Below are positions 8,846 to 63,189 of a stretch of 64,000 nucleotides of DNA, piece by piece. The first letter of the stretch is position 1. The number at the start of each line of letters is the position of its first letter. The notes beneath the pieces were generated by a model that saw only the letters and a program-made list of their open reading frames with translations, was not told the DNA's origin and ran no database searches. Both the position numbers and the translations under genes were made by a program. This DNA is from Tubulanus polymorphus (Eukaryota > Animalia > Nemertea): contig NC_134030.1 of NCBI RefSeq assembly GCF_964204645.1, forward strand, positions 22,280,210 through 22,344,209, written 5' to 3'.

Positions 8846-8904
8846 AATACCAGTCTATAAAACCGGACGCTGCAGTTAAAAACTAGTTCATCATTTTAAC
8901 TCAC

Positions 8905-9001
8905 CAGTATTTCTCTTATTTCGTACCGATACAGCTTCTGAATGGAACGAGATTGTCAGCAGTAGAATTACATCGATTACCAACCACATCCAGTTCTTCA
9001 T
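8905..9001 (-). CDS. Ig-receptor gene 1, signal-peptide exon (MKNWMWLVIDVILLLTISFHSEAVSVRNKRNT)
   Basis: Read manually: ATG at 9001, hydrophobic N-terminus, phase-1 donor G|GTGAG at 8904 that joins in frame to the exon starting at 8343. Too short for the ORF track. Confidence 0.75.
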
Positions 9002-24899: not shown

Positions 24900-25840
24900 A
24901 AGGGCCGCCATCTGGAAACGTTTATTATCGTTAATCATCGAAACCTTCCTCCTCATCAATAGTGACTGCTTTTAAATGTTCATCTATTAAAGTCTTGAAA
25001 AGTTCACCGAGGCCACGGTTATACTTGTAACGATACAGCAGCCCTGCCACGAATCTCGGGTGAGCGTCTCATACGCGACGTTACAAATTTCTTTAAGCGC
25101 TTCCAAACTTTCGATATTGCGGAAACAATATTCCTCCGACAACTTTGCGTTTACTGATCAGAAAACATGTCAAATCGATGTAGATATCGGTGAGTTTTGA
25201 TGGTATCGTTATTTCTTACTCGTCCATATACCGAAAACGAAACATACTAAGGTTTTAGTAGATACCTCAAAATAAAGGTGGCGCTGCGTAATATTGTCGA
25301 ATATCTCAATTGTATCGCACTTAGGGGTTGTTCTGTTTATGATATCGATGACTTCTTCCTGTGAGAAGCCAAATATCGATACAACGGTGAATTTGGGATC
25401 AGTGACGATCATGCTGCCCCGGACTCACGTGTTGTTAAGACGATATGCGCTTTGCACAGGTTCTCGTGTACGATGTACGATGTATTTCTTCGCTTTATCG
25501 TTTTTCAACTCGTCGAAGCCGTCTAGAAAAAAATTCGCTTTCTCTGCATTTTCCCGTACGAATTCTTTAAAACTACCAATTGGCAGATTCTTTCCGATTT
25601 CTTGATTAAAAAGATTTTCGTAGATTTACGTATAAAATACAAGCGTTATCAGCGGGCAGTTCATTTAACGGTATATAGAATAACATAGGAAACCTATTCA
25701 GAAACGGTGATCGCTCCCATGACAACACTTGATTTATTATACCCTTCCAGACTAATCATCTGTTTTGTTTTACCAATACCGGGTCGACCTCCGAGACACA
25801 CACGGGCTGGTCATGAGAGAAAAGCTTCTCGAAATCATTA
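24900..25840 (-). pseudogene. NACHT-domain pseudogene, paralog of the adjacent NLR
   Basis: Near-identical blocks to 27440-28570 (GRPGIGKT, FFLDGFDELKNDKAKK, MIVTDPKFTVVSI) with frameshifts and internal deletions. Confidence 0.85.
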
Positions 25841-28772: not shown

Positions 28773-31700
28773 CTGTAAAAATAAAATCAGTTTGAGATTT
28801 TTTAGAATTTCTATAGTGGCTGATTTTGCCTCAAAATCATAGAATCACAGAAAATGTCATGAGCTAAAATTTTACGATTGACCGCAGTTACAAAATATGC
28901 CTAGGTACCAAGGAAATACTGAGTTATTCTGCTATTCAACGCCCCCTGGTGACCATATACAAAAACCAACGAACCTGAAACTCACCACAATCATACATCA
29001 TGTCATGAGCTAAAACTTTGCAATTGATTGTGGTGACAAAATATGCTCTAGAAAGAATCTTTCTGTTGGGTCGGGTTAGCAACAAGTTCGATCAGAGACA
29101 TTCAAGGTCCCATCTACACGAGTGGAAAAATCCTTTATTTTCAATCTGCACGAGGAAAACATTTCCTAAGAGTCACCTTTAAAAGTCGGCTTTTTCACCT
29201 TTTTATACAAAATTATACTTAATCTAAAGATAAACGGCTTCGTTGATTTTGGTGAGCTTCACGTGTTACTAAAACGAGGGCGCTATCATCACAGCTCCGC
29301 AGTAAATACTGCAAACTACGCCGCGCATCAACATACAATTTTCAGCACAGGACAAGATGTTTATTAATCCTTCTCATCTTTCTCTGAATTTCAGTTTGAG
29401 TAAATCGGATGACAAAAATTAATTTCATTTAGTTCTTAACTTTTGAAGTGAGGATTGATAAACTGTATTAGTCACGCGATACACGATGAACTGGTTTTCT
29501 GAACACAAATCTTAGCTGCTTACGCGCATAAGAAGTGCCGGTTTTATGTCCTTGCGCAGGTAAACCAAATATACTTCGTTAATTTAGATTTCATCAAGAA
29601 AACGTATCTAGGCCTCGGATATACAATACAATAAGTAGCACCTCAACGAGTAAGAAGACTTTTTTAGAAAGGCCGATCAGCCATATCGGTCCGCAAAAGT
29701 AAAGGGATATCCCGATATGACATCAGGCGGGAAAATAATCATTATTTTACAGAATTCCTTCGATTTCTTCTTTCAGAAATAAATTCATTCGTTCTTTCAA
29801 AAAACCCAGGAAAGTGCAAAAAATTTCATGACTGACTGACAAAGATACCTTAAGCCGTAGGTCGGCCTTGCGACGCGACGCGATCGTCGCGTCACAAGTG
29901 GCCGCGCAAGTCGGTTGCGACACGATTGTCAGCGACTGTGTGCGACTAGTTGCTCCCAGTCGCAAGCGCGCGTAGATCGGTTGCGACGGTCGCGTCGCAA
30001 AAAGTAGATCATGTGCGACTCATTGCGACTGGCGTCGCTGGCAGTCGCAACCCGGCTTGCGACTCACTGCGACGCGACTCACTGCGACCGCCATCGACGA
30101 CCGCGTCGCAACGACCAACCGACCAACCTTGCGACTGCCAGTAGCTTTGCTACTGATCCGCAGCAAGATTTCGTAGTAGCTAAAAAATGTTGTAATGTTG
30201 ATTTCCTGTATGCGTTGGTGGTTATTAATGGTTTCAGACAACAAACGATGTAGTAAGCGGTAAGCGATTTTTTCTACCGACCACAGTTAGGTTTCGCTCT
30301 GCGCATGTTCTGAATATACCGGAAGTAAACAAACCGTGACGTACACGGAAGTAAAGCACATGGCTAGTCAAAAGTCAATTACAGTGTCAATAGTGTTGTT
30401 GTTTGATGCTTTGATCTATCAGTGCTGACCATAATCACCCTGCTGTAAAAATAATTCTTTCTCGGTTCTTCTGCTGCGATATCTGGCAAACATTCAGAAT
30501 CTTTTTATAAACTTAAGAATAGACGGAACCGTATTTGATCGGAACAATGGGTTGCATTAATAATGTGGCTGGTGGAAGAATCTGTCGCACATGTTCTATT
30601 TTCTTCGAGGCGACACAACCGACTTTTAGGAAAATAATAATATTCATTCATGCCCGCAGTCTTGGGAGAGCAGACATTCGACAGGTATTCGATAGATACT
30701 TGATAGATACTTGATAGAAGCTTGATAGAAGCTTGTTTGAGGCTTGATTCAGGACGGGTTATTAGCAGGATAGTACAATAGGAACTTAGAGCTAGGAACT
30801 GGACTGCGTTTTATCTGGAAAGCTTAAGATTAAGTATCAAGGTAAATAAAATTCGTTTTACTATTATTATATTCAGTTAAATTTCCGGTATTCTAGTTTT
30901 ACTTGGGTTTGTTCACGGACTCGTTCTCTCGCCAGGGACCGATCATCGCGCTTTTATTATTATACGACTAAGGAGAGGATTGTGACCGGTGTATCAATAC
31001 ACAACCCGACCACAAAAATAAAATCAGTCTGAGATATCCTAAGCCAGGCGTAGGACGGTCTTGTGATGCTTCGCAAGTGGGGCGTAAGTCGATTGTGATG
31101 CGATCATCGGCGACTGTGTGCATCTAGTTGCTGCCAGTCGCAAGAGCCCGTAGGTCGAAGCGAGGCGATCCGCGATTCTGATTCGATGAACTCAGCTGAT
31201 AATTAATTTTTCAATGATGTTACTCATTTATAAATTTAATGCAACAATGCGCGCTGGTGAAGTTCTAAACATTGATATAGTCTTCCCGATAATTAAACTT
31301 GAATCATTGCTCATCCCATAATGATATATTATAATTACATTCTAAATTGTAATCAACAGAAAATGGTTCCTCCGAAATAATGTAATATTTTTAGATTAAT
31401 CTCAATAAGCGAGTTTGTGTGATGGATAAGTATTTAGTAGGGTGTTTTCTTTACCATGCTCATGGATAATGCATCATTCAAAAATTCGTAATTCTTACAA
31501 ATTTTTATCTACATTTTCAGAGTTTTCAGGATCAATAAACATCTACATGTGGTCTTATATACTTTTACGGTTTTCAATTATCTGTATTAGTTTTTAAGTA
31601 ATTGCGAGCGAGTCAAACTTCCAAAACACGTTTTCTAGAATTCCCTATACGCGCATAGTTATATCAGGAAATTTCACAAATTTAACGCAAATTTCTATCT

Positions 31701-32430: not shown

Positions 32431-32699
32431 GTAAAACTGAAGTCAGTTTGGGATTTTTGAGGAGTGTCTATGGTGGCTGATTTGGGCCACAAGATTTCAA
32501 ATCGATTTAGAAAAATTAGTTAAAAATGAGAATTTGTTTTTCAGCACGTTCTAAAATACAACGTTTATTTCAGTGTTCACTGAAAAATAATTGTGTACTG
32601 CCCTGAAATCTTTAGTTGAAATTAACTTATTTCTATAACTATATTCCTGAAACTCAGGTCAAACCATAACTCGGAACTTTTTCATCCGGTGTGGTTGTT

Positions 32700-34383
32700 A
32701 ATATTTGAACATAGTCTACTGTATCACCCAACTCAGATATCACTCTCACGTCAAAAGATCTGACTTGAGCGGAGTCTACTGTACCATCCAACTCAGATAT
32801 CACTCTCAAGTCAAAAGATCTGACTTGAGCGGAGTCTACTGTACCATCCAACTCAGATATCACTCTCAAGTCAAAAGATCTGACTCTTGAACGGAGTCTA
32901 CTGTATCATCCAACTCAGATATCACTTTCAAGTCAAAAGATCAGACTCTTGAGCGGAGTCTACTGTATCATCCAACTCAGATGTCACTCTCAAGTCAAAA
33001 GATCTGACTTAAGCGGAGTCAATTGTACCATCCAACTCGGATATCACTCTCAAGTCAAAAGATCTGACTTAAGCGGAGTCAACTGTACCATCCAACTCAG
33101 ATATCACTCTCAAGTCAAAAGATCAGACTTAAGCGGAGTCTACTGTACCATCCAACTCAGATATCACTCTCCAGTCAAAAGATCAGACTCTTGAGCGGAG
33201 TCTACTGTACCATCCAACTCAGATATCACTCTCAAGTCAAAAGATCAGACTTGAACAGAGTCTACTGTATCATCCAACTCAGATATCACTCTCACGTCAA
33301 AAGATCTGACTTGAGCGGAGTCTACTGTACCATCCAACTCAGATATCACTCTCAAGTCAAAAGATCCGACTTGAGCGGAGTCTACTGTATCATCCAACTC
33401 AGATATCACTCTCAAGTCAAAAGATCTGACTTGAGCGGAGTCTACTGTACCATCCAACTCAGATATCACTCTCAAGTCAAAAGATCTGACTCTTGAGCGG
33501 AGTCTACTGTATCATCCAACTCAGATATCACTCTCAAGTCAAAAGATCAGACTTGAACAGAGTCTACTGTATCATCCAACTCAGATATCACTTTCACGTC
33601 AAAAGATCTGACTTGAGCGGAGTCTACTGTACCATCCAACTCAGATATCACTCTCAAGTCAAAAGATCAGACTTGAGCGGAGTCTACTGTATCATCCAAC
33701 TCAGATATCACTCTCAAGTCAAAAGATCTGACTTGAGCGGAGTCTATTGTACCATCCAACTCAGATATCACTCTCAAGTCAAAAGATCTGACTCTTGAGC
33801 GGAGTCTACTGTACCATCCAACTCAGATATCACTCTCAAGTCAAAAGATCAGACTTGAACAGAGTCTATCTACTGTATCATCCAACTCAGATATCACTTT
33901 CACGTCAAAAGATCTGACTTGAGCGGAGTCTACTGTACCATCCAACTCAGATATCACTCTCAAGTCAAAAGATCAGACTTGAACAGAGTCTACTGTATCA
34001 TCTAACTCAGATATCACTCTCAAGTCAAAAGATCTGACTTGAGCGGAGTCTACTGTACCATCCAACTCAGATATCGCTCTCAAGTCAAAAGATCTAACTT
34101 GAGCGGAGTCTACTGTACCATCCAACTCAGATATCACTCTCAAGTCAAAAGATCAGACTTGAACAGAGTCTACTGTATCATCTAACTCAGATATCACTCT
34201 CAAGTCAAAAGATCTGACTTGAGCGGAGTCTACTGTATCATCCAACTCAGATATCACTCTCAAGTCAAAACATCAGACTTGAACAGAGTCTACTGTATCA
34301 TCTAACTCAGATATCACTCTCAAGTCAAAAGATCTGACTTGAGCGGAGTCTACTGTATCATCCAACTCAGATATCACTCTCAG
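32700..34383. repeat. 60/62-bp minisatellite, about 28 copies, downstream of the Ig gene 3 stop codon
   Basis: Unit gagcggagtctactgtaccatccaactcagatatcactctcaagtcaaaagatctgactt. Confidence 0.95.
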
Positions 34384-36064
34384 CAGGATCCACTGTATCA
34401 TTAACAGCAGGTTTTCTATAGATACACAGTACTGTAAACAAAATAGAAAATAGCGTTTTATATTGCAGTGTTTTAATGGTACATTTTGTTTTGATGATGT
34501 GCAGTTCATAAAAAATGTACATACACAAACGTTTATTAATACTCAACCCAACGTTGAATTCAATTTCAAGCACTCTTTCACCATTATCGAGGGTCGACCG
34601 TACATGTTTATAGAGGGGGAGTGGATAATTTTGGATGGACCCTCGAATCCCTCAAGTCTACACTATTCTTTCAATCTTAAGCATAATGTATATGAATTAT
34701 TACAGAACTTACAGTTTCCACATCTACACAGTTCATCATCAGGTTTTCTGCACCGCACTGTCAATTAGAAATAACACAGTATTTCATTTCTGCAGTTTGT
34801 CTATCACTGTTTAATGATGGTTTTATGTAAAACTTACAGCAGCCACAAAGACACAGTGTAAACAGTATTATTAGAATCAGTAATATCAGTACACCGATTA
34901 CAGCACCAAACACTATTCCTCCATTCCATCCATCTGGAACTAAGCACAATCGATTTAAATGAATCAGCAATTTGGTAATCACAATAGATGATTTCATACA
35001 ACTGCCGTCAACCTCGATTCCAAGCCCAATCAGCAATTCAAGATGTTGGCGGGACGATTTTGTGACCAGTGAAAAATGCAGAAAATTCGTTTCTAATAAG
35101 ATTTTCTAGCGTTAGATGTTCATTTAAGAAAGGTTTGTTCATTTCACCGATGTTTGAAGTCGCACAGAATTAAATCATTTGAATGTTCAGATTCCGATTG
35201 AATTCATCCAGTTGTCACCCGGAATCTTACCTGGTTCATCAGTTGGACCGGCGTGATGATAACCAGCGACATCAATGACCCTTTCATTAATACCATCAGC
35301 CAAACACCGCCCTCTATAGTCAGTTGTGGTACTATTTACGATAGGTATCGTTATATTCCACTGATAGTTTGATAGTTTTTGAACGACAGCTGGAGGGTCA
35401 CATGTAACTTGTTGACTCAATGGGTTACTATTAACTGTTACAATATACACTGCGTGTGTTTCATTTCCACTGGATTTCTTGTAAACTGGTGCAGCAAAAT
35501 CTGATAAAAGACAAAACATTAGTGAAGGTTTTTTACAAGCTTACTGCACGGCAGAGTTCTCAACCCCTGTCAAAGTAGAACCATCTTCTCTCAGCAGGTA
35601 GACTTGATGACCTCCTGTGACTCAGCCACATGAACATGCATATGATGGATTAATGGATAGGTCTGGGGTCTTTATTGTTGCACGGAAAACGATTTTCTCG
35701 AATTCGAAAAGAAATTTTTACTTACAATGAACAATGATTGGATTAAATTGTCGAGGTTCTGGAAACGTAAGGTTCTCCTTTACAGCACATCGAAATGACG
35801 TTCCATTGTGCAGTTTGAAATTAGCTTTGAACTTGTAGGTTGTGTCAAAAACTTTTAAACTCCCTTTGAGAGGTACTCTTTGAGGTTGTGGATCAGGAGG
35901 AATTGGCTCCCATCGTTCAGAACCTCTTCTCTTCTGTTGGTATATCACTGTAGGATCGGGCCTTCCTATCACTGTTCTACAAATATATTCTACAACTTCT
36001 CCTTCAGTTCTAATGTCAGGTTCTCCGGTGAAAGTATCTAGTGTTTGAATTTCATCAGGAAAAT
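34367..36064 (-). CDS. Ig-receptor gene 3, 3' part: exon C 36064-35726, exon D 35500-35231, TM exon 34939-34838, cytoplasmic exons 34757-34713 and 34431-34367
   Basis: All GT-AG, phase 1; TM GIVFGAVIGVLILLILIILFTLCLCGC; Cys-rich short tail ending DPAESDI-stop. Confidence 0.75.
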
Positions 36065-38773
36065 CTTTAAAGATAAAAACGTGTCAATATATTTTTGTAC
36101 GCCATTATTTAGCCATTTTATGCAAATATACAAATTGGAACTTAAAATGACATGTGGCGATTTCTTGGGTATCAGGACAATAATTAAATCCTTTGTAATC
36201 CTTTATATCTTAACCTTTTCAAATACAAATCATTAATGCAAACTTATAACTTAACGACTTCTTAAATTATAAATTCGTTTATTATCTCTTGACTAGATGT
36301 ATACATTCTCTTCCCGGAGCTCTGTTCTCTTTAACCCTAACCTTTCTTAAAACCGTTTTAAAACTTTTTTAACAACTATGAACGCTCCCTTTTTATATTA
36401 TTTTATCTTTAGTACCGTGTGCAGACCCTCTTCCACACATGGCTTGGAATTCATGGCTTGTGACGTATTCATACGTCACAACATTCCTCCCATCCATGTA
36501 TGGTTGATGACGTATCTGCACACGTCACAATTATCTATGAATATCCCTTGCACTCATCAGAGTCCATGGCAGCATATTAGGTTTACCTACGTAGACACAT
36601 ACGTCACTTTCAGACTTGTTTATTTATATTACTTCTCGTATTTATGTTTATGTATGACGTACGCATCAACGCAGGTTGTCTGGCAATAACAACACTGGCC
36701 ATGGACTCCAGCTTCCGTACATCACTTGTTGGTACAGTTTAACTGCTGATAACTGAAACCTACTAATATGTTCCCTGGAAGCTTGTCATGAAAGCCCCAT
36801 AATATATGCCCTGAAAGTTTCCATAATAGTTCACCTTGAAAGCTAGAGGTTGTTTGGAGTAAGGGCATTGCTTGAAAAATCTTTTTAATTCGTGACCGAG
36901 TTCTACAAGTTTAAATATTATATTTCATCTTTCTTAAAGAATTATTTTGTAGTGAAATAAGACCAAAGATATAAAATTGTTTTATGGTCCACGTCCAAAA
37001 TTTCGTAGGGTACAGGTAGGCGCGGCAGGGAAAATATTTCACATTTTCAAAAAAATGTTTTTCACAATATGAAAAAATATAGCTGCAAGCAGCGATAACG
37101 GGTTTCTGCCTTTCTGGATACAATGTCATTCAGGGATTCGAGCAAAGATTTCACCCGAAATCAGTTTGTTACATTCCGTTTTTTGAATGAGTGCCACCTA
37201 GGGGTCAACTCACAACATGGATATGTTGACCCACATGTGCTACTAAGCGCAAAGTACTAATGCGCCAGGTTTTGGGGGAAATAACATCGGGAAGAACGAA
37301 GCTACGGTGTTTTTACCATTCCGTAGTGACAGTCTAAGCGCATATTCGGTAATTATTAGTTCCGAAAAAAAGTCGACTAGATAAGAAAACCGAATTTGGC
37401 CCAAAGCACAAATTTGGCCTATGCAGGAGGGAAGGCCTTATAGTGTTACTATTAGTAGAAGAGTTACAAGTCAGTCTGACAAGTCAAGCGATCAGATGGG
37501 GACTACAATTCACATATGAAATTGACGTCCAATAACCATTATAAAAACATAATCACGAACGGTACCATCACTCCCCATTACTGACCGTCACTGGTCTCTG
37601 GCTAGCAATCATTCTTTATCGGTGCAGTGGGTAGGTATTTTCAACTGACTTTGTTCTTCTATGACATTACCATCGCCCCTGCGCAAGATGATGTGATGTA
37701 CATGTACAAGGGACCTCCAATTTGTAATGTATGTGATGTAAAAACTGACTTTAGACCGTTTAATATCGACGATAACAAGGTATCACCGACGCTGACATTT
37801 TCTGACGCTAACTAGTATGACCCGCCTTTTGGACCGGACCAATTCAATTCAATTACGAAAACGCGTAGCGGTACAGTAAATAAATAAACCGCTGTTTATT
37901 TTTCGAAGTATTGACATCCACGAACAAAACTAAACTATTGTAGAATGTTTAAAAGGAACTGCTTTTAATAACAGTATGAATAATCTTACTTCACAAACAA
38001 GGAAGTACATTTTTAACTTGTGAATGGTCGAACCCCAGTTATTCACAGTAACCTATGATTTGGATATTCTCGGAGCCTTCCTTCTTTATTTACTTATGAA
38101 ATGACGTCACAAACTTTCAGATTCGCGCCAGTATGCGCCCCATGATTGATGGTTGCTATTTCCACCGGTGTTATCTTTAAGTAACTTCAAGTTTAAAATA
38201 GGAAGCACAGTACATCCAAAGAAACTACGCGCAGAAAGAGTCTGTTATATTATTATCAGAGTTTTAACATTTCGTTTCAAAGTTGTTACTAGTCAAATCT
38301 AATAGAAAGATTTTTTTGTGACGAAACTCAGTGGAAAACATGTTAAAATAATAATCAGCAGGAATCCAATAGGGTTTCTGCAGAGGCAGCAGAAACCCTA
38401 ATTAATATGATGTCATATATCAGATGGTGGCTGAATATTGAAAGTCTTGGAAACCTCTTCCAATGTATGGCATTGGAGGCTAAAATACCAGTGCAGTAAG
38501 AAATCCGGGGGTGTATTAGATCGCTTTAAATCCTGGAATTTACCTCTACAATATTCAGACCTCGACCTATAGGCCTACCTATAGTTTGCTGCTTTGTATT
38601 TTCAGGTCCCAAGAAATAACAATTTATTATACAAATTCTAACAGAAATCACAGCGCTCATCTTCTGCTACGATTATCTAGCCTTTCACACATGCACGCGC
38701 CATCAAGCAGCATTAAATCATTTGAATGTTCAGATTCAGATAAAATTCACCTATTTGTGACCCGGAATCTTAC

Positions 38774-39043
38774 CTGGTTCCTCAGTTGGACCGGCGTGAT
38801 GATAACCAGTGACATTAATGACCTTTTCACTAATACCATCGGCCAAACACCGTCCTCTATAGTCAGTTGTGGTACTATTCACGATAGGTATCGTTATATT
38901 CCACTGATAGTTTGATAGTTTTTGAACGACAGCTGGAGGGTCACATGTAACTTGTTGAGTCAATGGGTTACTATTAACTGTTACAATATACGCTGCATTT
39001 GTTTCATTTTCACTGGATTTCTTGTAATCTGGTGCAGCAAAAT
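38774..39043 (-). CDS. Ig-like/fibronectin-like exon type D (upstream copy)
   Basis: Paralog of 35231-35500; ATCAG/GTAAG boundaries; 270 nt. Confidence 0.7.
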
Positions 39044-39257
39044 CTGATTGAAACAAGAAAAATAGAGTTACTGAACCCCTGTTAGTATACCCATCATCCC
39101 TGGCAGGATTTTGAACCTGATGACATCACGAGACTCTGTCACGTTCCTCCATTACATGAATTTGTTACTGACATGCGCAGAGTGGATAGGTCTACTAGGA
39201 CTGGGGTTTGAATTGTAGCAGGGAAAACTGTTCAAACCCATAGGAAATTGCAGGACG

Positions 39258-39610
39258 ATTCCTCCCTCTGTAGGGATTTGAACCTGATGACATCGTGAGA
39301 CTCTGCCACGTTCCTCCCTCGCAGGGATTCGAACCTGATGACATCGTGAGACTCTGCCACGTTCCTCCCTCGCAGGGATTCGAACCTGATGACATCGTGA
39401 GACTCTGCCACATTCCTCCCTCGCCAGGGATTCGAACCTGATGGCATCGTGAGACTCTGTCACGTTCCTCCCTCGGCAGGGATTCGAACCTGATGACATC
39501 GTGAAACTCTGTCACGTTCCTCCCTCGGCAGGGATTGGAACCTGATGGCATCGCGAGACTCTGCCATGTTCCTCCCTCGGCAGGGATTCGAACCTGATGT
39601 TATCGTGACA
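39258..39610 (-). repeat. 51-52-bp tandem repeat of a tRNA/SINE-like fragment, about 7 copies
   Basis: The minus strand of most units contains GGTTCGAATCC (B-box) preceded by TG(G/A)CAGAGT. Confidence 0.8.
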
Positions 39611-39748
39611 TGTTCAGTGTGGATATACTGTCCACAGGACAGTGGTTTGTACCCGTTGCAAGGAAAATTGCTAGAACCCAAAGCAAACTTTTAAAGAAGA
39701 TATTTTAAGGAAGATTTCTCAAATTCGACAAATAAAACTGTTACTTAC

Positions 39749-40075
39749 AATGAACAATGATTGGATTAAATTGTCGAGGTTCTGGAAACGTAAGGTTCTC
39801 CTTTACAGCGCATCGAAATGACGTTCCATTGTGCAGTTTGAAATCAGCTTTGAACTTGTACGTCGTGTTAAAACCCCCCAAGACAGATACTCTTTGAGGT
39901 TGTGGATCAGGAATTGGCTGCCATTGTTCAGAACCTCTTCTCTTCTGCTGGTATATCACTGTAGGATCGGGCCTCCCACCTACTGTTCTACAAGTATATT
40001 CTACAACTTCTCTTTCAGTTCTAATGTCAGGTTGTTCGGTGAAAGAATCTGGTGTATGAATTTTATCAGGAAAAT
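39749..40075 (-). CDS. Ig-like exon type C (upstream copy)
   Basis: YTCRTVGGRPDP...HNGTSFRCAV; TTTCAG/GTAAG boundaries. Confidence 0.75.
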
Positions 40076-40579
40076 CTGAAAGATAAAGACGTAAATATAT
40101 TTGTAGATATCATTCATTATACTAAATGATCATCTTCTTATTCTTATTCTTTTGTATTTTCTAGATTTTTTGGGAATCATTTCTGACATTGGACTCAGAG
40201 GCCCGGAACAACCCAACTTCTGACTTTATTTTTTATTTTGGTTTATTCTATTAAGCAAAGTACAATGTACAGCAAAGTACAATGTTCATTGTTCATTGAC
40301 AAAAAAAAATGTTACAATATACAAATTCTATCCTGATGATGTTTGGCAAATGAATATGAATGTATGATATGAAGTAACCTTGCACTCTTAGTGGATACAG
40401 AAGGGTTCTATAAGTGAAGTGATTTCACTGTTCGAAAATTGAAAAGTTTGGTTCATTTTCAATTTCAAGAATGAATATAAAATTTCAATAGCTAGTTTTC
40501 AATACAATTTTATATTGATGAATTTGGACACCATTTGGAATACTCTTCAAAAAGAAGGTCAATCTAATCAGTTCTTTCC

Positions 40580-42720: not shown

Positions 42721-42876
42721 AGCATTCAAAACTTAATGAACTGGACTAACACTCTACTGCAGAGGTCGCGGCATCTACCACTGAGATCCAGAGTTACGAT
42801 TTAGACCGGACCAGCTACAAGTTTCTGTCCAAACACATAGATTTAGACTGGTCCAAAATCTGGACTGGACCTGGTT

Positions 42877-42969
42877 AGTAATAGGGAAAGTGGGCTTTCA
42901 GATCAGAGGACGAGAGGACGAGACACCACTCATCACCACAAGTAATTTTTTTTCCTAATAAATGGGAGA
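42877..42969 (+). repeat. Left terminal inverted repeat
   Basis: Reverse complement of 60123-60215 with 4 mismatches in 93 nt. Confidence 0.97.
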
Positions 42970-43324
42970 GAATGAACACCAGCCAGAAAATAATAATGCT
43001 AATAAAAATCAATATCATTGCCAATATTGTAAAAAATACGTCGATACATCTAATAAAACACGACATGAAAAAACTGCAAATCATATAAAAAATGTAATAG
43101 ATTTTGAAACGCCAGAAAATTCCAATGAAAGAAAAGAAAGATTAGAAAATATGAATGTGGATGAAATAAAATGTGAAGTTTGTAATGAATTTATAGTAAA
43201 AAGGAATTATAATAGACATCTCGAATCACAAAAACACCATCAAAATTTGAGTAATAATGTTTTAGGAAAAGATTATTTTGATGATAAACCTCAACAAGTA
43301 AAAAAAATCAACTTCAAAAACTAA
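42962..43324 (+). CDS. Two C2H2 zinc fingers; probably the frameshifted N-terminus of pPolB
   Basis: CQYC..HEKTANH and CEVC..HLESQKH; ends after an A-run 22 nt before the next ORF, which has no TAAATG start of its own. Confidence 0.6.
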   Translation: MGENEHQPENNNANKNQYHCQYCKKYVDTSNKTRHEKTANHIKNVIDFETPENSNERKERLENMNVDEIKCEVCNEFIVKRNYNRHLESQKHHQNLSNNVLGKDYFDDKPQQVKKINFKN

Positions 43325-43346
43325 ATCCATTTCAAATAAACCTTAC

Positions 43347-46300
43347 ATGGAAAATGTTAGAAATTATATTGATTCACTAGAAATAAAAGATACAATTGAA
43401 ATTTTAGAAACATTACATAGTAAAATTGGTCCTGCAGCTATTATATTTAGATTTTTTAAAGGTACAACAATAGAAGATTATAGTACATTTAATGAAATAA
43501 TAGAAAAAATACTAGATTTGATAACAGATGTTGAATATCCAAAAATTAGTATCTCTGGGAAAGTAAGTTTTATAAAGTCAGAAGAAAAAATGAATTATAA
43601 TATTCAAACACACTCTAAAGAAATAATTTCAAAAACACAAATAAAAGAGAAGTTAGAAAAAATATTTAATGAATTTAAACGTCATATTGAAGAAAGATAT
43701 TTTGAGGGTTCTGGCTTAACATTGAATGAAATTATATATTTAGATTTAAATGTTTATAATACAAAAAGGAATAAAACATCAAAAAGTAATAAAATGTTTA
43801 AAAATGATTCAAACTTTACAACAGAAAAGGATATTAAAGCATCATCTTATATTAAATTACCATTTACAACAAAAGCAGTAATAAATGTTCAAAATGAAGA
43901 TAATAAATGTTTTCTATGGTCGTCAATTATTAGTTGCTTACATCCAACACAGGAAAATGTTTGTAGAATAACAGATTATCGGAAATATGAAACATTATAT
44001 AAAATTGATCAATATCCAGTAACTATAAAAATGATACCCAAAATAGAAAAAATTAATAATTTAAAAATAAATGTATTCGAATTAATGCAATTACCAAAGA
44101 CAAAAGGTGAAAATATTAAAGATTATACATTGGAAGCTTTATATTTAACAGAATATTATGATGATGAAAATGCTATAGATTTGTTATATTATAAAAAAGA
44201 TGAAAATGAACATTATATGTGGTTAAAACAAATTGATTTATTCTTTAGAACAGAAAGTGATCACCATAATAAAATTTATCTATGTAGAAAATGTTTATCT
44301 AAATTTATGACAGAGAATACATTATTAAAACATAAAGAATTATGTGATAATAAAGATTTTTTGTAGATTAATAATGCCAACAGAAAAAGATTATAAATTG
44401 AAATTTACTAATCATAAATTTAAGAATATTGTTCCATTTGTAATTTATGGGGATTTTGAATCGTTGAATAAAGAATTAACTGATCAAGATAGAAAAGAAA
44501 TATATAACAAAAAGCAATTATTAAAATCAATGGATAAAGGAAATGAATTAAATGAAGACACAATACAAGACCCACCAATTATAAATACAAAAAGTTCATC
44601 AAAGAGCTGCTGCTTATGGAATTTATATAAAATCAAATTATCCTGAATTATATGAAAGTCAATATATTTCTTATAGAGGTGAAAATGAAGTTAATGATTT
44701 TTGTGATAAAATGATTGAATTAGAAAGTGATTTTGCAAAATTATTAAACAAAAATAAAAGAATAGTTATGACAAAAGAAGATGAAATTGATTTTAATTAT
44801 ACAACTCATTGTTGTTATTGTGAAAAACGTTTTTATTCATTTGATAAAAAAGTTAGAGATCATGATCATTTAAATTCAAAATATCGTGGAGCTGCTCATG
44901 AAGATTGCAATTTACAAGCTAAGAAAGTTAATTTCGTACCAATATTATTTCATAATTTATCAGGCTATGATACCCATCTATTTATAAAACAATTATCAAA
45001 GAAATTGGGCACAATTAATCAAGAAATAGAAGAATATAATGCTATGAATGGTGTAAATGTAAGAAAATATGATTTTAAACTATTAGCTAAAACATCTGAA
45101 AATTATATTTCATTTCAATTTGGTTGCATTAGATTTTTAGATTCTTATAGATTTCTAGCAAGTTCATTAGATAATTTATCAAAAAGTTTAGTTGATAATG
45201 ATTTTGTTATAACTCGATATTATTATCCAAATGAACAAGATGTTAAATTATTGAGATATAAAGGTGCAATTCCTTATTCATTTTATAAAACACACAATGA
45301 TTTTAATGTAACAGAATTATTAAAAGATCAATTTTATGATCAATTAAAAGACGAGTATGTGAAAGACGAAGTGTTTAATAGAACATTAGATATTTGGAAC
45401 CATTTTAAGATGAAAAATCATGGTGAATTAGTTGATTTATATTTAAAATCAGATGTTATGATATTGGCTGACATATTTGAAAAGTTTAGAGAAGTTGATT
45501 TGAATCATTTTAATGTTGATCCTTGTTATTGCTACTCTAGTCCTGGTTTAACCTGGCAATGTGGTTTAAAATATACAAATGTAGAATTAGATTTATTAAA
45601 AGAACCAGATATGGTTTTATTATTTGAAAAATCAATTAGAGGTGGAATTAGTGGTTTTATGGGAGATAGGTATTTTAAAGCAAATGATGAATATAAATTA
45701 TTATATATTGACGCCAATAATTTATATGGTTGGGCAATGATGCAACCTCAACCATATAAAAATTTTATATTAACAGAAGTTGAAAATGATGATAAAACTG
45801 AATGGGAAAACGCAATTGCGAGTTTAAAAGATGAAGCACCAATTGGTTATTTCTTTGTAGTTGATTTAGAATATCCTGAAAATATAAAGTTTAAAACAAG
45901 AAACTTACCTTATTGCCCAGAACATTTAACTGTAGATGATAGTTATTTGAGTGAATACCAGAAGAAAATAAAACCGAAAGATCATGTTTTTACAGAAAAA
46001 TTAATACTTACTCAAAATAATAAATACAATTATATTGTTCATTACAGAATGTTAAAATTTTATCTAAAACAAGGAATGAAATTAAAGAAAGTACATAGAT
46101 ATATTGAATTTAATCAATCGAAGTGGTTAGAAAAATATATAGATTTCAATACTCAACAGAGAACCATATCAAAAACAGATTTCGAAAAAGATTTCTTCAA
46201 ATTAATGAACAATAGTTTTTATGGTAAAACATGCGAAAATATTAGAAATAGAAATGATATTGAATTAGTAAATAATGCTGAAAGATTAAGACATTTACAA

Positions 46301-48024
46301 TCAAGTCCTAGACATTTAGGAAATAAAAGATTTGAAGATTATTTAACAGCAGTTAAATTAAAAAGAACGTCAATGAAATTTAATAAACCTATATTTATTG
46401 GTTCAACTGTTTTAGAAGTATCAAAATTATTAATGTATGATTTTTATTATAATGTTTTACAACCACTTTTTGGGGAAAAGCATATTGAAATATTATATTT
46501 TGATTCTGTAACAGCTGACACCCCAATATTATTAAAATGTAATGATAAAATATTGATAAGAAGAATTTCAGAAATAATTCCAAAACAAAATGAATGTTAT
46601 ATTTCATATGGAGAAAAAGAATTAATACAAATAAATGGTTTAATGGATGTTTGGACAAGAAATGGATGGAAAAAATTAAAGAATATTATTAGACATAAAA
46701 CAAATAAGAAAATCTATAGAGTTAGAACTAAATTAGGATTTGTAGATGTTACAGAAGATCATAGTTTAATTAAACGAAATGGTGATGAAATAAAACCAAC
46801 TGATATAAAAATTGGAGATGAATTATTACATAAAAGATTTTTCCAAAGAATGAATCATATGTCATTTGATGAAATAATTGATAATATTCATAATATAGAA
46901 CCCGAAACATTAGAAGAAAAAGAATATTTTATCAAAGGATTTTTCATGGGTGATGGTTCAGCAGTTGTGTATAATTATGTTAATCGCACTCAATATTGCT
47001 GGTATTTATGCAATCAAGACTTAAAATTATTAGAAAGAATAAAGAAATTCTGTGAAGAAGTTTATCCAAATAAAACATTTAAAATCATGGACGTTATGAA
47101 ATCAACAGCAGTTTATAGAATACTCGTAAATAATCCTAAAGATTTTGCTATAAAATATAATGATGAATTCTATATTCATGCAATAGTTAAAAGTAATACT
47201 TCAACAAAAGAAAATATAGTTCCAGATTATGTATTAAATGCAAAAAATAATTTAAGAAAATGGTTCTTCATTGGATTCTATGCTGCAGATGGTTCAAAAA
47301 GTTTCAAAAACCGCAAAACAATATCTTTAGCTCAAAAGAAAAGTTGCTATATCAGGATTGAATATATTATGCAGTTCATTAGGATTTAATATGAATATTG
47401 GATTGATTAAATCTAAACCAAATTGCTTTAATTTAAGCCATGTAGAAAATGAGTTAACAGAAGAAGTTAAAGATTTATTTGAAATATATAACCCAACTGA
47501 CTATGTTTATGATTTATCAACAGATGATGGAACATTCAATTCTGGGTTCCCATTAATCCAAAAAGATACCGACGCCTACATACTAAAAATCAAGACAAAC
47601 GACATAACAAAAGACTTAAAAACATTAAAACATCATTTTTAATTTAAGCAATTATCCCAAAGATCATGAACTACTTAGCAATGATAATAAAAAGATTCCT
47701 GGTAAATTTAAAGATGAATTAGGGGGTGATGAAATGATTGAATTTGTTGGGATAAGAAGTAAAATGTATAGTTATAGAACAAAAGATCATGAAGCTAAAA
47801 AGTTAAAAGGAATAACAAAACATGTGGTTGATAAACATATAGAATTTCAAGATTATATAAAGTGTTTATATAAATCAATTGTAATGAAACACAAAATGAA
47901 TTGTTTAAGATCAGAAGATCATGAGATGTACATTAATGAAGTTGAAAAAACTAGTTTAAATCCATTTGTTGATAAAAGGCATATTTTAGATGATGGTATA
48001 AAAACATTACCTTATGGTCATTAA
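43347..48024 (+). pseudogene. polB: Protein-primed family B DNA polymerase (terminal-protein/OTU-like N-terminus, exonuclease with EndoVII-like HNH insert, polymerase with intein), split by frameshifts
   Basis: NVQNEDNKCFLWS; ExoI YGDFES; HNLSGYD; RDHDHLNSKYRGAAHEDCN; motif A YIDANNLYGWAM; motif B KLMNNSFYGK; motif C YFD//TDA; GKFKDE; RSKMYS. Confidence 0.95.
46505..47567 (+). mobile_element. Intein with LAGLIDADG homing endonuclease inside pPolB motif C
   Basis: Block A SVTADTPILL, block B VTEDHSL, two LAGLIDADG motifs FIKGFFMGDGS and FFIGFYAADGS, block F YVYDLST, end LIQKD|T; one frameshift near 47340. Confidence 0.92.
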
Positions 48025-54563: not shown

Positions 54564-55811
54564 ATGAGTGGGAGTTATATAAGTCCTTCTAAGATTTCTA
54601 GAATATCTAATGCTATTAAAGCAGAAAGATCACATCATATAATTACTCATAACCCTTCAAATATTAATCCCGATGAAACTTTATATGTTAGAATTCCTAG
54701 ATTAACACAAAATACTTTTTATGTTCCGAATAGTATTTATTTATCAGCTGATATAAAAGTAACTGGCCATGATAACAATTATGTTGTTGATAATGTTGGA
54801 AGATATTTGATTAAAAAATTAACTATAAAGATTGGTCCGGAAACAGTTTTCTCATTTGATGATTATAATTTATTTATGCAATATAAAGATTTATGGTTAA
54901 CTAAAGAAAATAGAAATAATATGATATTTCAGGGTATTCAATCGGAAAACCATAATAAATTAAGATCAGGAGCTAATGACGCAATAGTAACTCGTGCCAC
55001 AGATAATTTGATTAAAAAGATTTATGGAAGCAAATATAAAATTCCATTAGACTTTGAATTGATAAATGATAATGCACCTTTATATAAATACGCAATTCAA
55101 GAAGATATTATATTTGAGATAACATTTGCTCCAGTAAATGAAATTGTATTATCTAGCGTTAATAAAGATATGGGTTATAAATTATCGAATATACGTTTAG
55201 AATATAACACAGTAACTAATGAAAATATTGCTAGCACAATTCAAACTCAATACAATCAAGGATTTTCATTATTATATGATTATATTGATAAATTTAAAAC
55301 TGTATTTATTAATGCAAATGATGAAATAATTAATGAGAATATTAACTTCCCAAGAAGATCTATTAAAGGTATATTAATATTTTTTACCATTGCAACATAT
55401 TCTAATGGCGCAATAAAGGTTGATAATTATTATAATCCTGAAATAACAAAAGTAGAAATAAATATTGAAGGAATAGCAAATAAAATATTTTGTCAAGGAA
55501 TGAGAATGATTGATCAATGGCCAGAAATTAGAAAACATTTTATGAATGAAAAAGTAAAATCATTTGAAAATTGTAATATTAATCAAATTGATTATTATAC
55601 CGGCAATAAATATGCATTATGGTTACATTTTAGAACAACAGAGGATAATTCATTACATGGTTCTGGGAAAAAACTACAGAACACTAAAGATGGAATACAA
55701 TTATTCATGGCGAAGAAAAGAGGAGACAAAAATTTCAAAATGCACATTTATATTATATCTGACGCACAATTAAATATTATAAATTCACAATTAGATAGTA
55801 TTCAATATTAG
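54564..55811 (+). CDS. Major capsid protein (double jelly-roll), intact 415 aa
   Basis: Size, beta-rich composition, position next to integrase and ATPase, and motifs NPSNINPDETLYVRIP and NVGRYLIKKLTIKIG resembling Polinton-like MCPs. The fold is inferred. Confidence 0.7.
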   Translation: MSGSYISPSKISRISNAIKAERSHHIITHNPSNINPDETLYVRIPRLTQNTFYVPNSIYLSADIKVTGHDNNYVVDNVGRYLIKKLTIKIGPETVFSFDDYNLFMQYKDLWLTKENRNNMIFQGIQSENHNKLRSGANDAIVTRATDNLIKKIYGSKYKIPLDFELINDNAPLYKYAIQEDIIFEITFAPVNEIVLSSVNKDMGYKLSNIRLEYNTVTNENIASTIQTQYNQGFSLLYDYIDKFKTVFINANDEIINENINFPRRSIKGILIFFTIATYSNGAIKVDNYYNPEITKVEINIEGIANKIFCQGMRMIDQWPEIRKHFMNEKVKSFENCNINQIDYYTGNKYALWLHFRTTEDNSLHGSGKKLQNTKDGIQLFMAKKRGDKNFKMHIYIISDAQLNIINSQLDSIQY

Positions 55812-55841
55812 AAATATAAAGTTAAAATTAACGATATATAA

Positions 55842-56966
55842 ATGAGGGTAAAAAAACTCCTAATACTAAAGAACAATATTTAAGAAATTTATATTACAAC
55901 CCCGAGAGTTCGGTTGCTTATTCTTCTACCAAAAATATATGGCGTCAAGTAAAACAAGATAAATTAGATAAGATAATCCCACACAATTTAGTTAAATATA
56001 AAGATATAAATGAATTTATGTTAGAACAACCAACATATACAACACAAAAAAATTGTTAGAAAATGTAAAACTCGTAAAACTATGGTAAGTTATGTAGATC
56101 AACAGTGGCAAGGAGATTTAATTGATATGAAAAATGTTAAGTAAGATAATGATGATTATTGGTGGTTATTGAATATAATTGATATTTTTAGTCGTTATGT
56201 ATGGAGTTTCCCACTTTATAGAAAAGATGCTGTACAAACATCAAATGTTTTAAGAAAATTTCTTTCGGATGATAAACTAAAACCAGAAAAAATACAATTT
56301 GATGATGGAAAAGAGTTTGATAATTCACTTGTTCATGAACTCTTAGATAATCATAATATTAATTATTTTTCAACAAAATCGGATAAAAAAGCAGCAGTTG
56401 TTGAACGATTTAATAGAACATTAAGAACAAGAATGTGGAAATATTTTACAGCAAATAATACTTTTAAATGGATTGATGTTTTACCAAAATTGATAGAAGG
56501 ATATAATAATTCCTATCATTCTTCTATTGGAATGAAACCTATTGATGCTAGAAAACCTGAAAATGCTGAAATTGTTTGGAATAATTTATATGGAGCATTT
56601 CTTGTAGATGATTTTGGTGAACCTAAATTTAAAGTTGGTAAAAATGTTAGAATTTCTAAGTATAAAAAGATATTTGATAAAGGATACGATCGAAATTTTA
56701 CTAGAGAAATATATAAAATAAAAAAGGTAATAACAACAAAACCATATGTCTATAAATTAGAAGATTTAGATGGTGAATAAGTTGATGGCTACTTTTACGA
56801 AGAAGAATTAAGTTTAACTACTGAAAATCTAGAACAAGAATATAAAATTGAAAAAGTATTAAAAACAAAAACTATTAAAAGAAAAAAATATTCTTTAGTA
56901 AAATGGGTTGGATGGCCAGATAAATTCAATGAATGGATATTATCAAGTAAAATTAAAAATATATAA
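55842..56966 (+). pseudogene. int: Retroviral-like (rve) DDE integrase with C-terminal chromodomain, disrupted
   Basis: QWQGDLIDM, IDIFSRYVW, IQFDDGKEF, KAAVVERFNRTLR; chromodomain YKIEKVL...LVKWVGWPDKFNEWI after an in-frame stop at 56780. Confidence 0.92.
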
Positions 56967-57575
56967 ATGAATAAAGAATTATTAATATTTGAGCCTCATA
57001 ATATGTTAATATCTGGCGTAACAAATTGTGGAAAAACTTATTTTATATTAAATTTATTAGAAACTGTTTATGAAAACTATTTTGATAATATAGTATTATT
57101 TTGCCCAACATATGAATTTAATCAAACTTATGATAGAAATATTACTAGAAATAATAAATTTATTATATTAGATCCTAAAACAGTAAAAGAAAATTTAGAT
57201 AATTGTATTAAAATAGCAATTGATATTTATAAAGGATCAAATACATTATTCATTATAGATGATTGTGCTAATTTACATGATTCAAAAGTGAGAGAAAGTG
57301 AGATATGTTATCTAGCTTTCTCTGGGAGACATTTCGGGATAACAACATGGGTTTTAAATCAAAAATATAATTCAATTGTTAAAGACTTTAGGGAGAATAT
57401 AAGATTTCTAGTTTTATTTTATAATAAAGATAGAAAATCGATGAAAAATGCACTTGAGGAAAATGATGTTATTCCACATGATTTACATAATGAATATATG
57501 GATAAGTTGAAAAATATTAAAAGATCAAAATTACTATATAGATTACAACACCCATTTAAATATGAATTTATTTAA
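56967..57575 (+). CDS. A32/FtsK-like genome packaging ATPase, intact
   Basis: Walker A SGVTNCGKT, Walker B LFIIDD, GRH..ITTWVLNQKY. Confidence 0.9.
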   Translation: MNKELLIFEPHNMLISGVTNCGKTYFILNLLETVYENYFDNIVLFCPTYEFNQTYDRNITRNNKFIILDPKTVKENLDNCIKIAIDIYKGSNTLFIIDDCANLHDSKVRESEICYLAFSGRHFGITTWVLNQKYNSIVKDFRENIRFLVLFYNKDRKSMKNALEENDVIPHDLHNEYMDKLKNIKRSKLLYRLQHPFKYEFI

Positions 57576-59803: not shown

Positions 59804-60130
59804 TTAATCAACAATTTCTAAATCATGATGACCGTCTTCATTTTTCCCATGATAGATTATTTTAAATCCTTCTAAATCTTTTAATTCCTCTGTACTCAAT
59901 GAAACCCATTTATCGGGTAAAAATACTTTAAATTCTCGCGATGTACTAACATTACAGTAGCTTAAATTAGCTGATACTTTCTCTCCATATTTAGTTTTTA
60001 TCTTTTCTAATTTCAATATTTTATGTTCAATTTCTTTTGTAACATCAACTAACTTTTTTATTTCAAATTGTTTTTTTGCTGGTTTTATTCTGTTATTTAT
60101 TGTTGCTAAGAATGCTTTTCTATCTCCCAT
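59804..60130 (-). CDS. Polinton right-terminal hypothetical protein (108 aa)
   Basis: Intact ORF whose ATG lies within the right TIR. Confidence 0.7.
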   Translation of the reverse strand: MGDRKAFLATINNRIKPAKKQFEIKKLVDVTKEIEHKILKLEKIKTKYGEKVSANLSYCNVSTSREFKVFLPDKWVSLSTEELKDLEGFKIIYHGKNEDGHHDLEIVD

Positions 60131-60215
60131 TCATTAGGAAAAGAAATTACTTGTGGTGATGAGTGGTGTCTCGTCCTCTCGTCCTCTGGTATGAAAGCCC
60201 ACTTTCCCTATTACT
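60123..60215 (-). repeat. Right terminal inverted repeat
   Basis: Reverse complement of 42877-42969; ends ...CCCTATTACT followed by the TSD CTGGTT. Confidence 0.97.
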
Positions 60216-60387
60216 CTGGTTCGCTCTTTTAGACCGTCCCAAATTAGACCGGTCTAGTTTGGAACGGTATTTTTGCCTGTGTTAACACTGTAATGTAATA
60301 CAGGAAACTCTGCGCTCTTCTCAAATATATTCAAAATGTAATTGAGATCTATATTGAACATATTCAAACAATTCTTTTTTTACTTAC

Positions 60388-60711
60388 ACGTAACGTCCAT
60401 TTTAGTTTGATGTAGTATTTGATTTTGAAGTGGAAGCTCTATGCCATTACACTTCCACAATTGACATTGAATCAATGTTGCGTACATCACGTCTCTATAA
60501 TCCAGCCGATTCCTGTTGACAACTCCATCTTTCACCGGAATATTTACGCCTGGTGGAATAGGGGAGAATTCATTCATGCCTTCAGTAAATCCATCAGCAT
60601 ACCATTTTACGTTCATGTTTGCATTACCAATCTTACTAATGGCTTTACAAGTACAAGCCAGTGATGGTTGGAATTGAGCCACCTTACACGGGTTTTCACG
60701 TATCTTTATAC
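60388..60711 (-). CDS. Ig-like exon type A, probably an upstream exon of Ig gene 3
   Basis: Paralog of 7440-7766; TATAG/GTAAG boundaries; open frame. Confidence 0.7.
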
Positions 60712-63189
60712 CTATAACAGATTTACATGAAAACATTCACAAATCAAATCGATCGGAGTCAAACGAAAAGCATTAACTCTTAAATCGATTTAAGATGAAA
60801 TGAATGAATGAATCAGTAGAACATAGAGACAGATAGTACTTCACTCGTTCACCTGATGAAGTTACTAGATATTAGTAGCGAAAGCTCGAATCCTAAATAA
60901 ACTACATGTATTTTAACTTTAAAGTACTATCTGGCTCAATGTTTTATTGATGCAACACAAATTTAACACGGCAACCGTCATCTACGGCAGCGTTCTATTT
61001 AAGAAAAAAAATTTCGAAGTTAATTCCGAGTTTATAACTCGGAATAAACTAGTTTTCTCAGTTAAATGTGATTTTCGAGTTTGGAGTTTATTCCGAGTTA
61101 CAAACTCGGAATAATTTGTAATTTCTTTTTATTTAGGTTACTCATGTATCTACCCTAGACAAATCTTCAGCCCAAAAACTGACCCTCAAATTCAATGCCA
61201 AATTCAAGATGGCCGACTGGCAGCCATTGTTGTTCGCCAAAATAAGCACTTTTTACACATTTTTGAAATTTTGAAGATGTTTCTATCAATTATCTTGATC
61301 TTTTTGATGTATTTGTATCCTCCAAGGGCCCACCAGCATGAGAATAATTCGGTCGAACAGACTCAAGATGGCCGATCTTTGACCCTTTCTGTGCCCAAAA
61401 AAAATGTCAACTTTGCCCGAATTGTGAGTCCTGTAGCTTCTTACAGGTTTGACATTTCTCATTGCAATTTGTGGCTATAGAATGGGATCATTTATTATAA
61501 CTAAGACAGGTATTTTTGATCAGCCAATTGTCACGCAATTGGCAGTCTTCTTTGTGTCACCAGTACTCATTCGCAAGTGGAATATAGTTTTTCCACATTA
61601 TATTGATACCTAAGCGTATTTTGTTACCACAATCGATTGCAAAGTTGTAGCTTATAACGTGTTCTATGATTTAGGTGAGTTTCAAGGTCATCGGTTTTTT
61701 GTATATGGCCACCAGGGGGCGTTGAATTATACAATAACTTAGTATTTCGGTACGTATATGCACATTTGGTTACCACAATCATTTGCTAAGTTGTAGCTCA
61801 TGGCATGGTCTATGATTGTGGTAAGTTTTTAAGGTCATTAGTTATACTAAATGGTCACCAGGGGCGGTGAATAGTAGAATAACTTAGTATTTCCATGTCA
61901 TTTTATTATGGAAATCACAAAACTTGATATAAGTAAATAAACATATGTGCAATACGCCAACCTGCACGCTTAATTCTACGACTGTTGGATAAAGAATTGT
62001 GGTCGCAATTTGTAGTCAATAGCCCTTTACAAAATGCCTGTGATGGATGGTTTAAGCGGGTAACTCATATGGTTCTCCGGGAGCACATCGCCGGAAACGC
62101 ATTTTCATCGCTATCTTCGTTATCCTCCAGGCTTTTCCCCCTAAACCTCATCAGTACATTTTATGTATTTGCCCTTTAAGGATCCACTAATCCAGTTACT
62201 CTTACTTACTCTTGTGTAAGAGAATGTTCGCTTACACTTCAATCAACGTCAATCAAAACAATCACCGGGTATTAAAATGAAACAATACCTATGGCGGATC
62301 TGTGAAATGATTACATCCTCACCAGCAATGAGCGTTTGAAATTCGCACGTATACGGCACCTAGTCCAGTGAAACGTTCGCCATTTTGGATTCCCATATTT
62401 ATTTTAGTAGCGCCGTATATCCCGAAAATAGCCAATCACATTCGCGCGTAGAGACAACGCCCCCCAATTGCAATTTTATACGCAAGAGCTAAGAATCTTC
62501 CCGCCAAAAACAGTTTTTCGTTGAAATTTACCGACGAAGGTTCGCCATGTTTTCAATCGCATGGATTATACTTTAAAGACGTTTAAGCCGAGAACCAATG
62601 AAACAAATGCTCACATAAACCACATAAACTAGAAAGAAACTTTTTAATAGGACGACGGAGACATAGAAATTCAAACTTGAACTAAGGGTGAAGATGAGTT
62701 CGGTTGGTTGGTAGTGCTTTTCAAAAGCGTTTGCAAGTCTGGTCCAAACGAAGTTCCACTGTTTTAGATAAAGAGTTGAGACTATAGTCAGCCTACAATG
62801 CAATTTTAAGGTATTACATAGATTGAAGGCAAAACGAAGCAGTTGGCACTCCTAAGTTTGAAAACTAGACCAGAGGCCTATCAAGGGAAACTTGGTACAA
62901 CTGTGGAAATATCCCGATTTACGATTTACAAACGCAAACAACAGAATTGGAATCCAAAAGTTTATTACGTTACGTATGTAAAAGTATAACTAAAGATATA
63001 ATTACGACACCCCAGCTGTTACAAATCTGTGCCGAGACCAATGTGGTCGCGCCGCCGCCCGCCTGGAAAGAGAGCGAGTCCCGCCTTATATACCGGGCTG
63101 ACAATAGAAGTAGATCGACTGTGCATTCTTTTCATGACAAGGCCCCGAGGCTCGATATTACATCAGATACGATTAGAGGGATTGAGAAA

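Follow-up and report, generated by a model that had tools for sequence, protein, structure and literature searches.

The window, a 64,000-nucleotide stretch of a contig of the nemertean Tubulanus polymorphus, holds a polymerase gene whose catalytic motif C is split as YFD|TDA by an insert of 1,063 nt (46505-47567). This raises the question of what the insert is, whether its carrier belongs to an animal chromosome, and whether it moves and where it came from. With a probability of roughly 0.8, we read it as a broken full-length Pol-c intein, intact copies of which are predicted to splice and are likely homing between Polinton copies. The insert has the following features.

46505..47567, + strand: Pol-c-type intein between the first Asp and the Thr of motif C, broken (junctions; empty joints in DNA reads; orthologues).
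46505..46768, + strand: N-terminal Hint region with Ser1 (block A) and DVTEDHS (block B) (TIGR01445; PI-PkoII match; motifs).
46937..46957, + strand: first LAGLIDADG motif, GFFMGDG (profile match and motif).
47273..47293, + strand: second LAGLIDADG motif, GFYAADG (motif).
47502..47567, + strand: C-terminal splicing region with block F VYD, block G and a terminal Asp, then Thr+1 (relatives' intein ends, 60-72%).

The N-junction reads ...EILYFD|SVTADTPILL and starts the insert at 46505; the C-junction reads ...DDGTFNSGFPLIQKD|TDAYILKIK and ends it at 47567, in a different frame from the 5' part. An earlier note on this DNA had placed the split here, and both junctions bear this out. It had also held that removing about 354 codons restores YFDTDA. 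The site and the junctions stand, but 1,063 nt is no whole number of codons because the frame shifts within the insert near 47.33 kb. Two LAGLIDADG motifs do lie inside, as the note had reported. The intein-free polymerases P0150-P0153 align on either side of the insert with a contiguous YFDTDS motif, and the flanks are thus continuous with such polymerases once the insert is removed. A spliceosomal or group I intron was ruled out, the insert being coding and in frame among its relatives.

The fold assignment of the intein rests on profile matches. The unbroken 276-residue 5' stretch scored 31.6 bits against TIGR01445 intein_Nterm (cutoff 24.5), and matched Pfam LAGLIDADG_3 (PF14528) above cutoff (25.6 vs 22.5). 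Pfam Intein_splicing matched with E=1.3e-5, yet stayed under its cutoff (25.4 vs 35.8), as it likewise did for the relatives P0001, P0005 and P0007. The profile check for Hint and LAGLIDADG domains that the earlier note had proposed thus came out in its favor for the first two models. Among solved structures, the 5' part matches the intein endonuclease PI-PkoII (E=8e-5). A single-sequence fold of the relative P0270 gave a pLDDT of 31 and was discarded. The features of class 1 inteins include a block F Asp and Ser, Thr or Cys at position +1 (PMC7765530, in part). Ser1, the block B T-x-x-H (DVTEDHS), the block F Asp (VYD) and Thr+1 were all found in the window intein; its last residue is Asp, where class 1 inteins have Asn. 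Tblastn against uninterrupted relatives revealed five frame breaks in the polymerase gene, one of them within the intein, and the window copy is therefore unable to make the enzyme. This intein copy is a broken, dead passenger.

Terminal inverted repeats and a 6-bp target duplication are hallmarks of Polinton/Maverick elements. Both are present around the polymerase gene, as listed here with the recognizable genes.

42871..42876, no strand: left target-site duplication, 6 bp (identical to 60216-60221).
42877..42969, no strand: left terminal inverted repeat, AGT start (93 nt, 96% complementary to 60123-60215).
42962..48024, + strand: protein-primed polymerase gene, frame-broken (PF03175, E=8.6e-19; tblastn frames vs uninterrupted P0324, P0325 and P0001).
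54564..55811, + strand: major capsid protein-like ORF, double jelly-roll, on weak evidence (Pfam Capsid_N, E=0.0037, below cutoff).
55832..56966, + strand: retroviral-type integrase with C-terminal chromodomain, in pieces (rve, E=1.9e-7; Chromo, E=1.4e-5).
56967..57575, + strand: A32-like packaging ATPase (Pox_A32, E=5.8e-13).
60123..60215, no strand: right terminal inverted repeat, ACT end (complementary to the left repeat).
60216..60221, no strand: right target-site duplication, 6 bp (same hexamer as the left).

The element has AGT...ACT ends, and the identity of the flanking hexamers has a chance probability of about 4e-4. The element is 17,339 bp long and contains recognizable pPolB, RVE integrase and packaging ATPase genes; Polintons/Mavericks measure 15-20 kb and carry this gene set (PMC4028283, in part). 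Atlas neighbors of the capsid-like ORF at 0.97-0.98 include DJR capsid clusters, with a low recognition score. No cysteine protease family match appeared in the 25 + 2 element ORFs scanned, and this gene may be absent, broken or too diverged. Near 44800-44900 the polymerase has a CxxC...DHDH...GAAHxxCN stretch that resembles an endonuclease VII domain (PF02945), a domain also scored in the relatives P0141, P0131 and P0002. The polymerase may therefore carry two unrelated nuclease domains.

Ig-like exons with common GT donor sites repeat on both sides of the Polinton. They form a tandem array with several near-duplicates (834-8395, 34367-40109 and 60380-60736), a receptor-like gene cluster. A NACHT-domain ORF of 933 aa lies at 26029-28830 on the - strand (E=1.9e-15), with a related stretch on the opposite strand near 25276-25605. 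LINE fragments are found near the Polinton. Tandem repeat arrays with periods of 82 nt and about 60 nt occupy 1-8996 and 32644-34517. The Ig-like exons, the NACHT gene and the LINE fragments give a setting that fits an invertebrate animal chromosome.

The element could instead come from a symbiont or a free virus and have entered the assembly through a mis-join; the intein would then still be real, but the DNA would not be of the animal germline. Its composition is much more AT-rich than that of the flanking DNA (0.22-0.25 vs 0.35-0.42), and none of the reads or contigs listed bridges an element-host junction by 31 letters on both sides. Contig X1 crosses the left junction by 29 letters; it was left uncounted, being under 31 and possibly from the source sample. 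Against a mis-join, the matching 6-bp duplications sit directly outside both inverted repeats, the interrupted Ig-exon array resumes past the element with the same GT donor sites, and the NACHT gene and LINE fragments lie nearby. The frameshift decay is typical of an old integrated copy, and the family occurs at high depth in a second study with the same species label. We find this explanation hardly credible. The central claim of the earlier note, a Pol-c-type intein with Hint and LAGLIDADG parts in a Polinton polymerase in an animal chromosome, is upheld by the profiles, the inverted repeats, the duplication and the flanking genes.

Are the lesions of the window copy shared by its siblings? 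Sibling copies were assessed through reads only, and roughly half of the words of the region occur in four runs. Run X6 is genomic DNA with the same species label from a separate study. One joint row of X6 comprises 35 reads whose match to the window breaks off directly after the catalytic Asp codon and resumes 1,097 bases farther on. These reads have 34 letters in the gap, so that the net skip is 1,063, exactly the intein; further rows are similar. Other X6 reads span the whole intein, so filled and exact empty alleles occur in one species, and the search for intein-free sibling alleles that the earlier note had suggested has found them. Compared by eye, the 34 letters that follow the site in the intein-free reads show about 11 differences from the window, which is a hint only because the detection threshold selects such stretches. 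At 90% likeness the depth over the intein is 166; it is 166-880 over the element as a whole and 4-9 in the host flank to its left. Intein-bearing copies therefore number roughly in the tens, a rough figure as that flank may itself be present more than once. At the intein frame break 32 of 70 sibling reads disagree with the window, and at the terminal codon 73 of 90 do; the lesions are therefore particular to the window copy or to a minority. A natural Asp-ending intein variant was ruled out by the Asn in relatives and by the differing codon in most sibling reads. No RNA run carrying the region was among the runs listed.

In the longer size class, a search with the insert matched 547 of 2,614 candidate proteins, and the best 120 were examined. 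Of these, eight (ranks 1-7 and 9) are Polinton-type polymerases with 45-60% identity. Another 93 match the N-extein of the Mimivirus PolB, and the remaining 19 match neither type. Shorter Polinton-type fragments reach up to 66% identity to the window intein. In P0001, P0002, P0005 and P0007, the intein occupies the identical site and is in frame. The C-junction was recovered for 27 Polinton-type sequences, many of them near-copies, and every one of them ends in Asn|Thr. The penultimate residue is variable (K, H or S), with Lys in the Mimivirus intein. Motifs of the GFFMGDG/GFYAADG type with their acidic residues are present in the window and in 6/6 Polinton-type relatives shown. Judged by these sequence features, the family is one of class 1 full-length inteins, and splicing is predicted. 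The conserved splicing residues would argue that the polymerases are still translated in some copies.

The relatives lie on contigs from a few kb to 1 Mb, and the tie to animal DNA comes from the window. In a 50%-representative search, none of 140 new proteins matched a protein-primed N-extein. Searches of IMG/VR, JGI metagenomes and GTDB gave no copy of the intein borne by a Polinton, and the 12 intein loci from JGI metagenomes included none with Polinton genes. A separate cluster of 55 members, that of P0270, consists of ORFs of about 362-365 aa that are almost intein only, preceded by a brief N-terminal lead and closed by a stop codon a few residues past the C-junction; after this junction, several have TN for TD. 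This cluster is possibly a free-standing derivative of the intein. Three type II topoisomerases (P0389, P0443 and P0479) hold inteins of the same family, two of them (P0443 and P0479) at the look-alike junction DxD|TDG. This suggests that the family is able to move from one gene to an unrelated one where their acidic motifs are alike.

Filled and empty states are intermingled among the polymerases. Protein clusters of 136 and 121 members each mix the two. Among the 15 members listed for the former, seven bear the intein, six are empty and two stop short of the site; in the latter, the empty P0141 is 99% identical to the intein-bearing P0138. The best 120 extein matches comprise 5 intein-bearing, 65 empty and 50 without motif C shown. 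Redundancy was removed before tree building at 70% for inteins and 85% among intein-free exteins. The polymerase N-extein tree had 52 rows, 15 of them intein-bearing, which is no frequency because intein-bearing rows were kept on purpose. It shows 12 changes of intein state, nine forced by starred branches, and the state clusters no more than shuffled labels do (133/500 as low). Such patchy presence may also stem from repeated precise loss. A real, splicing-competent intein could have been gained once in ancient times and passed on vertically with occasional loss or recombination, with no ongoing homing in animals and with empty siblings arising via ordinary recombination between co-resident Polinton families. 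The intein and polymerase trees are in fact broadly alike in the main group, with the window beside P0001 and P0002 beside P0003. P0007 stands against such descent: its polymerase bears this very intein, and the N-extein of that polymerase has no BLAST match to the others (branch length 4.78), so that lateral movement is needed here. The 99% identity of P0138 and P0141, one with and one without the intein, and the acidic residues kept in both nuclease motifs across inteins only 45-60% alike also speak against it.

The flanks of the insertion site bear on the same question. In the P0002 family, filled and empty members disagree at 8/20 residues surrounding the site, vs 0.7-2.0% elsewhere, a pattern seen in 21/21 comparisons that are non-independent. 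The filled flank matches other Polinton families at 18-19/22 positions and its own empty siblings at 14/22. This pattern would fit co-conversion in homing, or empty alleles escaping cutting. Local flank differences are also producible by ordinary recombination, and the several different site sequences among intein-free P0002 siblings are in keeping with vertical descent; that the differences peak exactly at the insertion site is not. In the P0005 family, three comparisons gave 0/20 local differences, which recent clean homing and precise loss may fit equally well. On balance we regard purely vertical descent as unlikely and prefer homing between Polinton copies. The variety at the catalytic motif among close copies is itself unusual: the intein-free P0002 siblings P0127 and P0129 read YTD-CDS at motif C, and others read YFD-TDA or YGD-TDA.

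The origin of the intein was addressed with a careful tree of 36 hand-chosen rows, with archaeal Pol-c inteins as outgroup, and a quick tree of 59 rows; the window was represented in both by its unbroken 5' 276 residues. In the 36-row tree, the seven Polinton-type inteins form one clade (100/100) on a long stem. This clade joins PolB inteins ending in GF/GY-x-L at 92/95, unstarred and with deeper nodes open, and the 59-row tree has the same joining at 96. The 80 best IMG/VR loci yielded 72 inteins, 20 of them with a GF/GY-x-L ending, and 19 of these 20 sit on giant-virus MAG contigs. L096-L102 are giant-virus-like Pol-c inteins on contigs filed as bacterial or archaeal bins, which are probably viral contigs or proviruses. 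The earlier note had assigned the insert to the Pol-c site shared with giant-virus PolB inteins, and its nearest non-Polinton relatives do sit at that site. The phylogeny that it had called for therefore agrees as to the giant-virus Pol-c side, and places the window intein inside a Polinton clade.

The note had further inferred acquisition by homing from a co-infecting large DNA virus; taken literally, the element would have obtained the intein directly and recently from a giant virus in its animal host. Giant-virus PolB inteins are indeed the nearest relatives outside Polintons, with the site and the GFPL-type end in common. The best giant-virus identity to the window intein is 41-42% vs 60-66% in Polinton-type polymerases, all of which fall in one clade on a long stem. 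The GC of the intein (0.248) equals that of the surrounding polymerase gene (0.241), which argues against a recent arrival. A direct pick-up is thus largely contradicted, and we consider it very improbable. As the closest relatives are Polinton-borne and form one clade on a long stem, the jump from giant viruses was old and probably single, and the single clade also points to later spread between Polintons. The simplest reading would be a single ancient jump out of a giant-virus PolB and then spread from Polinton to Polinton, with the direction tentative, as the sister grouping is unstarred and the deeper nodes are open.

Several known systems resemble parts of this arrangement. The Mimivirus PolB intein occupies the pol-c site (Ogata et al. 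2005, PMC549080, in part). Inteins of this type in Mimivirus and other Nucleocytoviricota share with the window the motif C site, Ser1, Thr+1, DVTEDHS, two LAGLIDADG motifs and a length of about 350 aa. The window intein is 41% identical to that of Mimivirus. The Mimivirus-type host is an RNA/DNA-primed PolB (PF00136), whereas the window host is a protein-primed polymerase (PF03175). Unlike the Mimivirus type, the carrier here is a 17-kb integrating multicopy element in an animal genome, and the intein belongs to a clade of its own. Archaeal PolB pol-c inteins (Thermococcales and others) share the motif C site, the SV(T/S)GD start and the HN|TD end; they are only about 23-28% identical over the full 5' stretch and form a separate long-branch clade.

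Gallot-Lavallee et al. 2023 (PMC10710043) describe inteins in giant-virus-like DNA polymerase genes that lie on scaffolds of the nuclear genomes of Klebsormidium, Tetrabaena and a labyrinthulomycete. There, too, a viral polymerase carries an intein into a eukaryotic nuclear genome; the hosts are algae and a protist, vs an animal chromosome here. The words 'Polinton' and 'animal' are absent from the text of that paper, and 'Polinton' and 'Metazoa' from two of its supplements. Insertions of HNH and VSR nucleases in Polinton pPolB are known (Jeong et al. 2023, 10.1101/2023.08.22.554363), and that preprint does not contain the words 'intein' or 'LAGLIDADG'. One sentence in Krupovic et al. 2024 (PMC11071308, in part) suggests that nuclease insertions in Polinton polymerases result from intein invasions. 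Those inserts are alike in placing nuclease domains within Polinton polymerases. HNH and VSR are fused nuclease domains, whereas the window insert has a splicing domain, splits the catalytic motif and is present or absent as an exact unit. The Hedgehog Hog/Hint domain is another Hint-type autoprocessing domain in animal genomes (PMC7765530, in part). Unlike it, inserts of the window type are bounded by exact empty alleles. To our knowledge, Hedgehog has no homing nuclease and does not ligate two flanks.

How would an intact copy work? By class 1 chemistry (PMC7765530, in part), splicing would proceed through an acyl shift at Ser1, transfer to Thr+1 and cyclization of the Asn. This would rebuild YxD-TD[SA] and yield an active polymerase; an unremoved intein would leave about 350 residues between the two motif C aspartates. 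From the distribution of filled and empty copies, the nuclease would be expected to cleave polymerase alleles that lack the intein, at their motif C codons. A cut allele would then be converted when it is repaired with a filled copy as template, and flanking codons would sometimes be copied with it. On the tree, the family would have begun with a single ancient transfer out of a giant-virus PolB, made easier by the YxD-TDS site common to both polymerases. From there it may have passed through the Polinton lineages and reached a second polymerase type that is very distant from the first. A bolder version of this account holds that the family is an undescribed clade of true inteins actively homing among tens to hundreds of germline Polintons, with empty copies evolving escape sites. 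It would be a natural intragenomic drive, seeded once from a giant virus and crossing very distant polymerase types. We give this version an even chance.

Inteins are found in fungi, plastids and large viruses, and among free animal viruses they are known in Iridoviridae (PMC5784728, in part). Background literature also includes PMC12220804 (in part). The 2018 survey of eukaryotic inteins lists 0 for Metazoa in a supplement table (PMC5784728), in line with the statement of the earlier note that inteins are essentially absent from metazoan nuclear genes. No description of an intein in a Polinton polymerase was found in the literature searched, with subscription journals and repeat databases outside the coverage. 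Within that literature, this is a known intein allele in an undescribed placement. Taken together, the window locus and its relatives show a whole intein that occupies the active site of the polymerase in a multicopy family of animal DNA, where filled alleles occur beside empty ones. They are also sequence evidence for gene flow between giant viruses and Polintons, implying that both were at some time in one cell. It can now be tested whether inteins splice and home in animal cells or persist as passengers of viruses.
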